DNA from: Dehalococcoidia bacterium
GTDB lineage: Bacteria; Chloroflexota; Dehalococcoidia; Bin125
Direction: 5' to 3'
Length of the DNA stretch: 64,000 nt
Assembly (NCBI GenBank): GCA_963663235.2
Contig: CAXXNO010000004.1
Coordinates: 704,001 to 768,000 of the forward strand
Part shown: piece by piece, positions 238-44,444 of the stretch
How the letters are laid out: every line of letters begins with the position of its first letter
Numbering within the stretch: position 1 is the first letter of the stretch
Program-made: the position numbers and the translations under genes
The notes under the pieces: generated by a model
What the model was told of the DNA's origin: nothing
Seen by the model: the letters and a program-made list of their open reading frames with translations, nothing else
The model's database searches: none

Positions 238-1087
238 TTAGCTGCGCCCTTCGATCAGCGTGGCTACCTGATCTAGCACCGGCATCACAGTCTCCGTCGG
301 GGCGCTAGGCAGCTCGAAGAGGCATCTGTCGACGCCCAGCTCTTGGTACGCGTCCAGCATGCCGGCGTCCGGCTTGGTCCACAACGTGACGCTCACCGAC
401 TTGGGATCGCGACCGATGCGCTCCGCGCGCTCGCGCAGGTCTTTCATGTCCTCGGCCATCCGGCGCGGCGGCGAGAACAGCGGCAGCCAGCCGTCGGCCC
501 ACTCCACCACACGCTGGCGGGACCACTTCGTGCTAGCACCGATGTAGATCGGCGGATGGGGCTGCTGCACCGGCTTGGGGCTCACCGTGGTGCGGGGGAT
601 ATCGACGTACTTCCCGTGATACTCCGCCTCGTCGCTTTGCCAGAGCGCTTTCATCGCCTCCACCCGCTCCCGCGCCACCTGCCAGCGCTCCTTGAAAGGC
701 GTGCCCAGCGGCTCCATCGCTTCGGCCAGCCAGCCCGCGCTGACACCGAACAGGAAGCGCCCGCCGGAGAGACGGTCCAGGCTGGCCACTTGCTTCGCCG
801 TGACGATCGGCTCCCGCTCGTTCACCAGACAGATCGCCGTCCCCACTTTCAGCGTCGTGGTGACGGCCGCGAGCGACGCTCAGCGCCACGAACGGGTCGT
901 AGGAGCGGAAGTACCGTTCCGGCATCTCGATGCTCTTCGTGCCGGGGAAGGGCGTCACCCGCTGCGAGGGAATGTGCGGGTGCTCCGGCATCCAGAGCGA
1001 ATCGAACCCGCGCTCCTCCACGGCCCGTGCCAACGCAGGGACGGGCATCGATTTGTCGGTGAAGAACGTCGAGACGCCGTATCGCAT
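238..1087 (-). CDS. LLM-class (probably F420-dependent) oxidoreductase, split by a frameshift near 870
   Basis: The N-terminus MRYGVSTF...GFDSLWMPEHPHIP...YDPFVALSVA (ORF 533..1087) continues after one extra base as AAVTTTLKVGTAICLV...SLDRLSGGRFLFGV...PKPVQQPHPPIYIG (ORF 238..846). Confidence 0.85.
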
Positions 1088-1405: not shown

Positions 1406-2590
1406 ATGAGCGTGCGAGGCAAGACGGCGATCGTAGGGTTCTATGAGGTCCCGACGCTGAAGGAGTATCCCGACCGCAACACCATGAGCCTCTTGGCCGA
1501 GACCGCCAAGGGCGCGATCCGCGACGCAGGCCTGCGCAAAGAGGACATCGACGGTCTCATCTCCTCGGAGGCGCTCAATTCCATCACCCTGGCCGAGTGG
1601 CTCAACATCAAGCCACGGTATACGGCATCGATGACGGTGCACGGTTCCAGCGGGGCCAATTCGATCGCGACGGCCGCCTCCGCCATCGCCGCTGGACTCG
1701 CCAACTACGTGCTCTGCATCTTCGGCGGGTCACGGCCGCGCAGCAGCTCGCGCATTGGTGGCGCCCAGCTCCCGCGCGGTGGCGGCGGCGCCGCCAGCGG
1801 CATCACGGAGTGGGAGGCGCCGTTTGGGCCGGCCATCGGCGCCAACGCCGGCTACGGCCTGATCAAGCAGCGGTACATGTACGAGTACGGCGCGACCCAG
1901 GAGCAGTTCGCCAAGTGTGCCGTGGACGAGCGCTTCAATGCGCTCACCAATCCCAATGCCCTCTGGAAGGGGCGGCCAATCACGATTGAGGATGTCCTCA
2001 ACTCGCGCTTCATCAACGATCCGCTGCACCTGCTGGAGTCGGTCATGCCCTGCTCCGGCGCAGCGGCCGTCATCGTGACGACTGCCGAGCGCGCCCGCGC
2101 GCTCCCCAATCCACCGGTCTTTGTTCTGGGGATCGGCGGCCCCGCCACCCGCCACGACATGATCTGGCAGGAGGAGTCGGTGACGACGACACCGGTGATC
2201 CTGTCGGCCCCAACCGCGCTGCGCATGGCGGAATATAACGCCAGCGAGATGCAGTTTGCAGAGTTCTACGACTGCTACACCATTCTCGTCATGATCTGTC
2301 TGGAGGACGCCGGCATCTGCCCCAAGGGCGAGATCGGCCCCTTCTACGAGTCCACCGACACGACCTACAAGGGCACGTTCCCCATCAACACGGACGGCGG
2401 ACAGATCGCCGCCGGCCAGCCCGATGGTACGGCCGGTGGCTTCCGCCACGTTGTAGAGGCGACACGCCAAATCATGAAGAGAGCCGACGATCGCCAGGTC
2501 GAAAAAAGCGACCTGTGCCTCGTCAATGGTTGAGGCGGCACCGCCAGCGTGATGTGCACGCTGGTGCTCGGTTCGAGCGCCACCCTTTAG
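1406..2590 (+). CDS. Thiolase-fold (SCP2/Ltp2-like) protein with an in-frame UGA at 2531-2533, candidate selenocysteine; ends at 2533 without readthrough
   Basis: GGAGGGGAG RBS then MSVRGKTAIVG; motifs YDCYT and INTDGGQ; no N-terminal catalytic Cys. After LVNG-TGA the frame continues GGTASVMCTLVLGSSATL-TAG, the typical last strand of this fold. Confidence 0.85.
2542..2566 (+). promoter_or_regulatory. Candidate bacterial SECIS hairpin downstream of the thiolase UGA
   Basis: Perfect stem CCAGCGTG (2544-2551)/CACGCTGG (2557-2564), loop ATGTG beginning 18 nt after the UGA, extendable by G-U and C-G pairs. Confidence 0.5.
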
Positions 2591-2621
2591 CAGCCAAGCC
2601 GAACAAATTGGGAGGAGTGTT

Positions 2622-3038
2622 GTGGCGGACGAATACACCAAACCGATTCCGCGGCCGGAGAATATCGAACTGACCCAGCCTTTTTGGGACGCGGCGAAGC
2701 GCCACGAGCTCATCATGCCCCGCTGCCGGAAGTGCGCCAGCTACTTCTGGTACCCGCGTCCCCACTGTCCCGACTGTCTCACCGAGGACTGGGAATGGTC
2801 AGCGGTCAGCGGGCGAGGCCGGCTCTACACCTTCACCGTGGTCCGTCAGCCGCAGAACCCCGCCTTCGCGGACGACACCCCGTACGCCTACGCCGTAGTC
2901 CAGCTTGACGAAGGCGTCCGGATGTTATCGAACGTCGTCGATTGCAAGATCGACGACCTGAGCGTCGACATGCCTCTCCAGGCCACCTTCGATGACATCA
3001 CCGACGAATGGACGCTGGTGAAGTTCAAGCCGGCCTAG
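2622..3038 (+). CDS. DUF35 / ChsH2-C-like Zn-ribbon OB-fold protein (thiolase partner)
   Basis: PFWDAAKRHEL, CRKC...CPDC, SGRGRLYTFTVV, VQLDEGVRMLSNVV; GGAGGAG RBS; lies directly after the thiolase. Confidence 0.93.
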   Translation: MADEYTKPIPRPENIELTQPFWDAAKRHELIMPRCRKCASYFWYPRPHCPDCLTEDWEWSAVSGRGRLYTFTVVRQPQNPAFADDTPYAYAVVQLDEGVRMLSNVVDCKIDDLSVDMPLQATFDDITDEWTLVKFKPA

Positions 3039-3042
3039 GCGG

Positions 3043-3201
3043 CCGGGCTGCCACCCCGTCACCTTCACGCAGACCCCCGCCAGCATCCGCCGCGTCGCTC
3101 CCGAGCTGGGCGAGCACACGCAAGAGATCCTGAAGGAGCGGTTGGGGTATAACGACGAGCAGATCGCCGAGTTGGTGATCGAGGGTGTGATCACGTCGTA
3201 G
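3043..3201 (+). pseudogene. C-terminal remnant of a class III (CaiB/BaiF) CoA-transferase
   Basis: Startless frame PGCHPVTFTQTPASIRRVAPELGEHTQEILKERLGYNDEQIAELVIEGVITS*, containing the hallmark APxLGEHTxEIL. Confidence 0.8.
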
Positions 3202-3288
3202 CGCGGGGCTGCGGCCCCACGGCGGTGGAGGCCGATCCCCGAGGGTGCGCGGTCCGCGCTTCGGCCAGCCGTGGGAGGCGACCGCGGC

Positions 3289-3906
3289 TCAGCGCAGAGG
3301 GGAGAACGGCGCGGGGGTGAGAATCCTGGTCTCCTGGCTCACGAGAAACTCACGTGTGGCGGGTGGCCAGTTGGGGTCTTTGAACGCCTCGGCACGAATC
3401 TGGTCGCGGGCTTCGAGACTCTCGTAAGGCGAGATGTGGGTCCACCGGTTGAGAGCGCCGATTTCGGTGTACCAGCACGCCGCCAGCGGCGAATACTTCT
3501 CCCGATGCACGATGGCAGCGGCCCAGCGATCGATCACGGCGGGGATGGAGAGCGGTCGATAGGTGTAGGTCCGCATCTCGTAGATGTTGCCCAACTCCTG
3601 GTCGCGGTCCAGGTCGCGCATGAAGGGCGCGCCCACTCAGATCTCAGACTCCATGTTCAGTAACACGGCTGTGTGTGTGGGCGGCCAGTGCGGGTCCGCA
3701 GCGGCAGCCGCCCGCACTGCCTGCCGCTGGGCGAGGTCCTCATACGGCCAGACATGGATGGCCTGGTTGAGGGCACCCAACTCCGATCGCCAGAACGCCC
3801 CGAGCCGGGAGTATTGAGTCCGATACGGGAGGGCCTCGGCGAACCCTCTCTCGAACTCGGCGAGATCACCCGGGGCGAAGGTGTACGTGCGGACCTCGTA
3901 CAACAT
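3289..3906 (-). CDS. Two-domain NIPSNAP protein interrupted by an in-frame TGA at 3637-3639
   Basis: Two YE(V/M)RTYT...YSxLxAxW..E.GALN...H..PY repeats; ORFs 3637..3906 and 3289..3636 are contiguous in one frame (MESEI*VGAPFMR). Confidence 0.85.
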
Positions 3907-43662: not shown

Positions 43663-44444
43663 TGGGGCTTCACGGCGCGGAAGGTCACGCCGCGAGTATC
43701 GAACTCCTTGGCGTCGGATTCGTGCTTGGAGCCGGAGAACACATCGATCTGCGGTCCCCACTCCAGGCCGACGAATCCCGCGTGATCCAGCACCCAACGC
43801 CACTCTGCTTCCAACAGAGCGCCGGCAATTCAGCCGGACCAAAGTTCGATGTCGTCCTTGGCGTCCTGCGGGAGCTCCTGGTGGACCAGGATGTCCGCGA
43901 TCTGGATGTGGCCGCCGGGCTTGAGGACGCGCGCGATCTCGCCCATCACGGCGACCTTGTCCGGACAGAGATTGATGACGCCGTTGCTGATGACCACATC
44001 CACGGACGCGTCCTCGGCCGGCAGATCCTCGGCGAAGCCCTCCCGCAGCTCGACATTCCGCAGACCGAGCGTCGCCGCTCCAGCGCGGGCCTTGTCCAGC
44101 ATCGCCGGGGTCATGTCCACGCCGATCACGCGCCCCGCCTGCCCCACCTGTCGAGCAGCCAGCAGGGTGTCGAGCCCCGCGCCGCAGCCAAGGTCCAGGA
44201 CCACGGCGCCCTCGGCAAGCCGGCCTATGGCCAGTGGGTTCCCGGTCCCCGCGAAGGACTCAACGGTCGCGGCCGGGAGTGAGTCGATGGCCGCGGAGTC
44301 GTAGCCGAGCATGGCGGTCAACGGCAGCCCAGTGTGGAAGTGGAAGCCCTGTTCGGGCTCCGTGGCCACGTCCGTGTACTTGTCCTGAATATTGCCGCGC
44401 AGCACGTCGCGGGAGACGGCAGCGGGTTTTACCAACTGGACCAT
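43659..44444 (-). CDS. ArsM-like SAM-dependent methyltransferase, probable selenoprotein (Sec at UGA 43830-43832)
   Basis: LDLGCGAG, ISNGVINLCPDK; LWSG-TGA-IAGAL occupies the WxGCIAGA Cys motif; the frame continues to TAG at 43659-43661. Confidence 0.9.
43801..43821 (-). promoter_or_regulatory. SECIS-like hairpin of the ArsM-like gene
   Basis: CGCUCUGUU-GGA-AGCAGAGUG stem-loop; the G-starting apical loop lies 17 nt after the UGA. Confidence 0.7.

Follow-up and report, generated by a model that had tools for sequence, protein, structure and literature searches.

A 64,000-nucleotide stretch of the genome of a Dehalococcoidia bacterium (assembly GCA_963663235.2, contig CAXXNO010000004.1, positions 704,001 to 768,000; hereafter the window, position 1 being its first letter) carries near its start a thiolase-fold gene that is interrupted by an in-frame TGA codon and adjoined by a gene for a DUF35 protein. 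We consider it likely, judging from the comparisons presented below, that this UGA, codon 376 of the gene, specifies selenocysteine (Sec) in the catalytic centre of a 394-residue carbon-carbon (C-C) lyase of the Sal/SLP type which works with the DUF35 protein. The selenocysteine reading is strongly supported at the sequence level; the chemistry of the enzyme may be either acid-base or redox. The UGA at 2531-2533 would be decoded with the help of SelB and the selenocysteine tRNA (tRNA-Sec), both recruited by a hairpin a short distance downstream (hairpin 1), and the product would be the full-length protein of 394 residues, not the annotated one of 375. A preliminary description of this DNA, made from the letters alone, had proposed that a thiolase-superfamily protein with a DUF35 partner carries Sec in its C-terminal catalytic loop, and the tests reported here speak in favour of that proposal.

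Codon 376 and the tail that follows it

The open reading frame starting with ATG 1406 proceeds to ...LCLVNG, encounters TGA at 2531-2533 and continues in frame through GGTASVMCTLVLGSSATL to TAG at 2588-2590. Direct reading and translation with TGA taken as U bear out the continuation noted in the preliminary description. The read-through protein matches the Pfam family Thiolase_C_1 along residues 246-389 (profile positions 2-143 of 144) and the NCBIfam model PRK06158 along residues 3-394, where the end of the profile is reached. Both matches extend well into the tail, and the 18 residues encoded after the TGA therefore belong to the domain. In the AlphaFold2 model of the read-through protein (predicted local distance difference test score 89.2) residues 370-377 and 382-389 are β-strands, and the tail is predicted to form the last strand of the fold, in line with the earlier suggestion that termination at the UGA would cost the protein a core strand.

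Homologous DNA was collected from whole genomes of relatives and from GTDB species genomes, all of them from Dehalococcoidia/Chloroflexota. The scan of the GTDB species genomes returned 273 relatives, the best 80 of which were kept, and a further search gave 8 loci. Codon 376 is readable at 76 distinct loci (L075 and L099 end at contig edges, and L073 ends inside the tail). It is TGA at 73 of these and AAC at the other three; TAA and TAG never occur. In all 73 TGA loci the tail is exactly 18 codons long, and it is closed by TAA (45 loci), TAG (27) or TGA (1). Variation within the tail falls mostly on the third codon position (entropy of 0.56, 0.38 and 1.25 at positions 1, 2 and 3, respectively). 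This variation is of the coding type, and the tail is, as its codons indicate, under protein-level constraint.

It is very improbable that the UGA is a true stop codon, with a functional 375-residue product and with the downstream sequence and hairpins serving mRNA stability or translational coupling of the DUF35 gene. Public gene calls do end here: in the protein search most of the 120 matches listed cover 95% of the query, are mostly 55-80% identical to it and terminate at ∼366-378 residues, which corresponds to codon 376. Furthermore, a second hairpin downstream (hairpin 2, described below) is kept in two of the three Asn forms. However, the stop at codon 376 is always TGA (73/73), yet the terminator at the end of the tail is TAA or TAG in 72 of the same 73 loci; the fixed length and third-position variation of the tail, as well as its homology to the terminal strand in relatives without TGA, are likewise at odds with a true stop. 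Finally, 35 homologues would lose a quarter of their fold if translation ended at the second TGA described in the next section, at codon 290. Full-length proteins number 10 among the 120 matches listed, and in these close homologues residue 376 is Asn (6), Cys (2), Ser (1) or Val (1).

Near-identical DNA is present in 18 public runs. The codon is covered by contigs from three public runs, each of a different study, with no other letter listed at 2531-2533. The RNA run X19 has only two short contigs on the stretch, which are not evidence of expression. A sequencing error or a pseudogene is ruled out by the TGA in 73 loci from many assemblies together with the contigs of the three studies. The TGA, the 18-codon tail, the third-position variation and the spanning contigs all agree, to a degree far exceeding chance. 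That codon 376 is a true terminator, a nonsense mutation private to this genome or an error of sequencing is therefore excluded or very unlikely.

A second TGA codon, the hairpins and the selenocysteine machinery

The strongest support beyond the evidence of the preliminary description comes from a second TGA, which in 35 homologues occupies the codon of the catalytic Cys in the YDCY motif (codon 290). At the 75 loci tallied, this codon is TGA in 35, TGC in 28, TGT in 10 and CCC in 2; with Cys in 38 loci versus TGA in 35, the Sec/Cys signature is clear at this site. The combinations at codons 290/376 are TGA/TGA (35 loci), TGC/TGA (27), TGT/TGA (10), CCC/AAC (2) and TGC/AAC (1). All 72 TGA376 loci readable at codon 290 thus have there either Cys (37) or, by our reading, Sec (35). 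The TGA290 codons are followed by a stem-loop of their own (UCGAGGC-CGUGU-GCCUCGA) with a folding energy of -11.3 kcal/mol, compared with -6.2 kcal/mol in the Cys290 forms.

In a maximum-likelihood tree of 92 rows, obtained by a short search and with a root that rests on long branches, 85 rows constitute a Sec clade (support 99). Double-Sec forms are found on deep branches of both halves of this clade, while the Cys290/Sec376 forms, including the window gene, are nested inside it. The Sec-less forms (Cys/Asn, Pro/Asn, Gly/Cys, Cys/Ser and Asn/Val at 290/376) are nested in one late sub-clade, and the outgroups have Cys/Asn and Ser/Thr. This topology suggests that the ancestor was a double-Sec protein and that Sec was lost later. 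The proteins with Cys376 (P0068 and P0076) have Gly290, and the forms in which both residues are lost have Pro290/Asn376; the way in which residues 290 and 376 vary together in nature argues that they are functionally linked.

Hairpin 1 is composed of CCAGCGTG (2544-2551), the loop ATGTG (2552-2556) and CACGCTGG (2557-2564). Reading of 2544-2564 agrees with the preliminary description of a perfect 8-bp stem whose loop starts 18 nucleotides past the UGA; the hairpin itself begins ∼10-13 nucleotides past it, and its family-conserved core, which starts 12 nucleotides after the UGA, consists of 5 bp (2546-2550 with 2558-2562). Stability was assessed by comparing nucleotides 8-38 after the UGA with synonymous recodings that keep the protein and the codon usage of each gene. 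The natural sequences have a mean minimum free energy of -12.7 kcal/mol, as opposed to -5.9 kcal/mol for the recoded ones (mean z -2.88, n = 73); taken one by one, 81% of these loci reach p ≤ 0.05. The signal is absent from the controls, i.e., three close Asn forms (z +1.03; 0/3) and 19 distant paralogues with Asn, Thr, Pro or His (z +0.12; 0/19).

In the ungapped alignment of the 73 sequences 84.1% of the cells of helix 15-21/27-33 are paired, compared with 74.7% in shuffles and 22-55% with slid partners; none of 500 shuffles reaches the observed value, albeit kinship between the loci inflates the pairing and covariation figures. Compensatory exchanges are found at pairs 20-28 (UA 48, AU 23, unpaired 1) and 21-27 (GC 39, CG 10). 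In the latter, a change between synonymous codons for Val is matched by the third base two codons further on, so that these exchanges act at the RNA level. In the loop, A22-U23 are always present and G24 nearly always; these three bases form a Met codon, in place of which relatives without TGA have Gln, Val, Glu or Thr. An alternative register of the hairpin (13-18/26-31) has 75% of its cells paired and no covariation, and is not preferred.

Hairpin 2 overlaps hairpin 1 by two bases and lies 37 nucleotides from the UGA. Its register depends on the lineage (73% of cells paired in one and 60% in another), and its region has z -2.11 in Sec forms, with a signal also in two of the three Asn forms. 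Its G(G)U(U) loop resembles the GG loops of the reference selenoprotein genes; as the main selenocysteine insertion sequence (SECIS) element it is not preferred, being lineage-dependent and persisting in Asn forms. An Rfam scan of 2200-2700 returned nothing relevant, with only a chance match at E 8.7. Hairpin 1, which is specific to the TGA forms and covaries, is the candidate SECIS, although SelB may use either of the two hairpins.

The genome, which is 91.9% complete, contains selA, selB, selC and selD, the four genes that the preliminary description had singled out for checking. The tRNA-Sec scores 70.9 bits and is called as tRNA-SeC with anticodon tca by ARAGORN; selB scores 359 bits (cut-off 242), selA 552 bits (cut-off 268) and selD 358 bits (cut-off 125), the last gene itself having an in-frame TGA (CGGUGSK; C4:∼103860). 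Among 41 related genomes, selB is present in all four with TGA forms (G000, G010, G029 and G040), but it is common in this set anyway, being above the cut-off in 32 of the 41. Classical selenoprotein genes are also present elsewhere in the genome, namely a pair of AhpD-like genes (CxxU) and one gene each of the Prx-like (WUPxC), SelW-like (CxxU) and rhodanese-like kinds, the names being assigned by motif. The selD, AhpD-like, Prx-like and ArsM genes share with the aldolase-like gene an in-frame UGA, a stem-loop within ∼11-16 nucleotides and the Sec machinery; they differ in having GG loops, in contrast to AUGUG here, and in that their Sec usually belongs to a UxxC/CxxU-type redox motif and not to the active site of a C-C lyase.

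Decoding of the UGA by a standard amino acid, through near-cognate reading by Trp, Cys or Arg or through lineage-wide reassignment, is scarcely tenable in the light of these results. Nothing specific favours it other than the departure of the hairpin loop from the GG loops of the genome. At other places in these loci and genomes TGA ends genes in the usual way, the Sec machinery is complete and accompanied by several classical selenoprotein genes, and the hairpin goes with the TGA forms. Moreover, the second TGA coincides with the codon of a catalytic Cys, the Sec/Cys signature in its classical form.

A Sal-type active site and the possible role of selenium

The best solved relative of the protein is CtSal (9myr_A; sequence E 1.4e-75, Foldseek E 4.2e-46, TM score 0.86, 37% identity), the bile-acid side-chain retro-aldolase of Comamonas testosteroni, whose structure was solved together with the DUF35 domain of its partner Shy (9MYR). 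The reaction of this type of enzyme is the retro-aldol cleavage of 22-hydroxy bile-acid CoA esters. The two share a thiolase/SCP2-like fold, a DUF35 partner, Gly at the nucleophile site, YDCY, two Gln residues beside the Cys and an oxyanion-hole Gly in the C-terminal loop. In the HMMER alignment G80, Y288, C290, Q333, Q338 and G378 correspond to CtSal Gly89, Tyr302, Cys304, Gln347, Gln352 and Gly391 (the chain numbering of 9myr equals the CtSal numbering + 24, as checked on Cys304 and Gln161). Gly80 is invariant in alignments A1 and A3, and Y288 and D289 are invariant in A3. The counterpart of Sec376 in CtSal is Thr389, which precedes the oxyanion-hole Gly391 by two positions, and Sec376 would accordingly lie inside the catalytic centre; CtSal has no selenium at this place.

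According to PMC12329534, Tyr302 and Cys304 of the YDCY motif are the catalytic base and acid of CtSal, with C304A, C304S and C304H all inactive; Gln347 and Gln352 are proposed to stabilise the thiolate, the backbone of Gly391 and Gln161 are proposed to form the oxyanion hole, and Gly stands at the nucleophilic-Cys position of thiolases. The same source proposes that SLP shares this catalytic architecture. Sec290 of the double-Sec homologues thus replaces the Cys which the CtSal mutagenesis marks as indispensable as the catalytic acid.

Judged by these residues, the protein is Sal/SLP-type and aldolase-like, and neither a thiolase nor an Ltp2. The preliminary description was correct in recording VHGSSG without a nucleophilic Cys, YDCY and the adjoining DUF35 gene, but the likeness to Ltp2-type retro-aldolases that it drew does not extend to the active site. 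TcLtp2, solved with the DUF35 domain of ChsH2 (6OK1), is also a thiolase-fold aldolase without a nucleophilic Cys and with a DUF35 partner, and its Tyr294 corresponds to Tyr288; however, it uses YDHF and Tyr344, and the His and the Tyr344 are replaced here by Cys290 and Gln338. A classical or SCP2 thiolase was likewise rejected, as Gly80 and Gln338 stand where such enzymes have their nucleophilic Cys and the His of GHP. SCP2-type thiolases and trypanosomatid SLP (3ZBG, 5AB4-7) have a similar fold, and their HDCF/YDCF is equivalent to YDCY; in the alignment with 3ZBG, YDCY matches HDCF and GQP matches GHP, so that Q338 stands at the thiolase GHP His as well as at Ltp2 Tyr344. True SCP2 thiolases, unlike the window protein, keep both the nucleophilic Cys and the GHP His. 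The NCBIfam thiolase models score below their cut-off (288 vs 421 bits).

The equation of U376 with the Cys of the classical thiolase CxG motif, also put forward in the preliminary description, could not be confirmed: hhalign against the classical thiolase of a relative (probability 60%) stopped at V373, before the loop. It would fit the i/i+2 relation to the oxyanion-hole Gly in the Zoogloea thiolase. No classical thiolase (TIGR01930, E ≤ 1e-40) was found in the 91.9% complete genome itself, and 18 of the 20 related genomes searched have one.

In the mechanism that we propose, the protein would be a thiolase-fold C-C lyase with the architecture of a β-hydroxyacyl-coenzyme A (CoA) retro-aldolase, acting together with the DUF35 zinc-ribbon/OB protein. 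Tyr288 and Cys290 would serve as a base/acid dyad, as in CtSal. The selenol(ate) of Sec376 and Cys290 (Sec290 in half of the family) would constitute a chalcogen pair that shuttles a proton to and from the α-carbon of the acyl-CoA enolate.

In the main alternative, the UGA would encode Sec in an enzyme that is redox-active or redox-gated, Sec376 and Cys/Sec290 forming a selenenylsulfide or diselenide that either carries out reductive chemistry at the α-carbon of an acyl-CoA or switches the aldolase on and off; we regard this as unlikely, although it would account for several features. Residue 290 is Cys or Sec in all 72 readable TGA376 loci, Cys376 goes with Gly290 (P0068 and P0076) and joint loss yields Pro/Asn, and both positions belong to loops from which, in CtSal, the catalytic centre is formed. 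Moreover, the prokaryotic selenoproteins listed in a 2026 review overwhelmingly have UxxC/CxxU redox motifs. On the other hand, no reductase, thioredoxin-like or electron-transfer gene is conserved beside the pair, the neighbours of which vary, and the counterparts of the non-redox residues of CtSal (Tyr288, Gln333, Gln338 and Gly378) are all retained. A related idea, which is possible but on balance doubtful, is that of an ancestral catalytic centre with two Sec residues (U290 in Y-D-U-Y and U376 in N-G-U-G-G), used either for acid/base chemistry in C-C cleavage or for redox chemistry of a diselenide at the α-carbon.

A number of points weigh against the interpretation of the gene as encoding a Sec-dependent lyase. 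Actual incorporation of selenium at codon 376 is something that we infer from sequence. Cys homologues had been anticipated at this position; two were indeed found (P0068 and P0076, known as protein sequences only), but the relatives without TGA mostly have Asn, so the Sec/Cys signature is weak there, and the distant homologues have Asn or Thr and no Cys (54 of 79 loci being readable at both sites). TGA and Cys do occur there beside Asn, so the condition under which the preliminary description would have been refuted (close homologues with Trp, Asn or Thr, never TGA or Cys) does not apply. The loop of hairpin 1, AUGUG, lacks the leading GG, with G at positions 3 and 5, and is, as had been cautioned, a weaker match to the SECIS consensus; the loops of six further selenoprotein genes in this genome, at nucleotides 21-30, read GGC, GGU, GGUC or GGA. 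Requiring a G at loop position 1 or 2 failed to distinguish Sec forms (0.96) from controls (0.67-0.68), a rule that is uninformative because the sequence is GC-rich. The exchange at pair 20-28 also replaces Val/Thr by Glu/Ser in the protein and may go back to a single inherited change, and the TGA290 hairpin has only a modest advantage over its synonymous recodings (z -1.36, with 17% of loci at p ≤ 0.05). In the protein, the oxyanion-hole Gln161 of CtSal is matched by Ala146, which Asn147 adjoins. No hydratase gene stands beside the aldolase-DUF35 pair in the window or in the neighbourhoods of the related loci. Finally, a non-redox lyase that employs Sec for acid/base chemistry is not known to us. 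What Sec376 does chemically, and on which substrate, is likewise what we infer.

We are probably dealing with a widespread selenoprotein family of Dehalococcoidia/SAR202, apparently undescribed so far, in which a C-C lyase has one or two active-site Sec residues. A full-text literature search found no publication on a thiolase-fold, DUF35-linked or Sal/Ltp2-type selenoprotein, albeit supplementary family lists could hold one. No thiolase-fold selenoprotein appears in the main texts of PMC13188914, PMC12013277, PMC13326102, PMC2398784, PMC9312934 and PMC1976440, although, for example, the 111 families of BSepDB may include it; nor is there a thiolase-fold family in the main-text table of prokaryotic families (with Pfam/NCBIfam accessions) of the 2026 review. 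NCBIfam has no specific model for the family, and public names ('thiolase family protein' or 'acetyl-CoA acetyltransferase') are attached to truncated products. In public annotation the proteins are cut short at codon 376 and, where there are two Sec codons, at codon 290, which implies hundreds of mis-called genes in abundant ocean and groundwater Chloroflexota. The presence of Asn rather than Cys in relatives of the Sec site departs from the rule of homology-based selenoprotein finders, and may explain why the family is absent from the selenoprotein lists consulted.

The natural Cys/Sec, Sec/Sec, Gly/Cys and Cys/Asn variants make the part of selenium in carbon-acid proton transfer testable, and the family would make degradation pathways in SAR202-type bacteria depend on how much selenium is supplied. 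If the two-chalcogen centre is real, the use of Sec would extend beyond its classical thiol-oxidoreductase and metal-ligand roles, and the family would mark selenium dependence in the carbon catabolism of SAR202/Dehalococcoidia.

Features of the locus, its neighbours and other selenoprotein genes

Table 1. Features of the aldolase-like locus (window positions) and motif-named selenoprotein genes elsewhere in the genome (contig:position).
Feature	Position	Strand	Basis or remarks
Sal/SLP-type thiolase-fold aldolase-like selenoprotein gene (putative)	1406..2590	+	ATG 1406, TGA at codon 376, TAG 2588-2590; 394 codons + stop
Gly80, where thiolases have their nucleophilic Cys	1643..1645	+	CtSal Gly89 by alignment
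Y288-D289-C290-Y291 motif	2267..2278	+	Catalytic Tyr302/Cys304 of CtSal; Cys290 is TGC 2273-2275
Q333...Q338 (GGQIAAGQP)	2402..2419	+	CtSal Gln347/Gln352; alignments including 3zbg GHP
TGA codon 376, probably read as selenocysteine, in N-G-U-G-G loop	2531..2533	+	Homologue codons, alignment to CtSal, spanning contigs
18-codon tail GGTASVMCTLVLGSSATL, predicted last β-strand of the fold	2534..2587	+	Fixed length, codon-position entropy, model strands
Hairpin 1, candidate SECIS	2544..2564	+	Stem 2544-2551/2557-2564, loop AUGUG 2552-2556
Hairpin 2 (GGUGCUCG-GUU-CGAGCGCC)	2563..2581	+	Second stem-loop, G(G)U-type loop
DUF35 partner gene, 138 aa	2622..3038	+	GTG start, GGAGG upstream; Pfam PF12172 + PF01796
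Five motif-named selenoprotein genes of the same genome	C4:786926, C12:203049, C5:45281, C5:50199, C6:216247(-)		Names assigned by motif

The product of the DUF35 gene has a C4 zinc ribbon (CRKC...CPDC) and an OB fold, and by homology to the solved complexes the aldolase-like protein would bind it. The DUF35 partner of CtSal is a C3H1 domain that ends the MaoC-type hydratase Shy; here it is a free-standing C4 protein of 138 residues. A DUF35 homologue is found in 85 of the 91 related loci, mostly directly downstream of the aldolase-like gene and upstream of it in the Pro/Asn paralogues. Such Pro290/Asn376 paralogues, with the DUF35 gene upstream and not downstream, are L044/L080 and L083, which come from two genomes that also hold Sec forms; the Sec forms closest to them (L043/L077 and L076) have no DUF35 gene adjacent within the flank. 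Locus L100 carries tandem double-Sec paralogues (L100:879-2060 and L100:∼2100-3317), with a single DUF35 gene after the second.

No operon partner other than DUF35 is conserved among the related loci examined. The variable neighbours include genes for enolase-superfamily proteins, family III CoA-transferases, HMGL-like proteins, acyl-CoA ligases, amidohydrolases, sulfatases and Rieske oxygenases, and no steroid-pathway genes were found near the pair in the window or in the related neighbourhoods. In the window, the neighbours are a split luciferase-like monooxygenase gene, two NIPSNAP genes and a flavoprotein gene.

The ArsM-like Sec gene with which the preliminary description had compared the locus is present at 43737-44396 of the window on the minus strand (NF008823, 227 bits, below the cut-off). 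Its in-frame TGA (43832-43830) lies in LWSG-U-IAGAL and is followed by a 9-bp hairpin with GGA as its loop at nucleotides 21-23 past the UGA, the SECIS loop being also placed 17 nucleotides after it. Since the 2026 review already lists a UxxG arsenite methyltransferase selenoprotein, this gene is of a known kind. Outside the window, at C12:208722 of G000 (minus strand), a TGA occurs in ...FIPPIG-U-GGKPEVS..., flanked on both sides by good coding signal and followed by a hairpin of 9 bp whose loop is GGUC. A further selenoprotein gene, of no assigned family, may lie here.

A genome-wide codon-usage scan for in-frame TGAs was noisy and served only to choose the reference SECIS elements; it recovered several classical selenoprotein genes, but neither the aldolase-like gene nor selD. 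A first scan of the window for a TGA followed by a hairpin gave many spurious matches in the high-GC DNA.

The luciferase-like monooxygenase gene (PF00296; window 238-1087, minus strand) is split between two frames with a break at ∼846-850, the parts matching profile positions 25-61 and 70-224; it may reflect a frameshift, a pseudogene or an assembly error. Directly after the DUF35 gene, a short open reading frame (3061-3200, plus strand) ends in ...EILKERLGYNDEQIAELVIEGVITS. Pfam gives no match for its 45 residues. The end resembles the C-terminus of family III CoA-transferases, and the frame may be a gene remnant.

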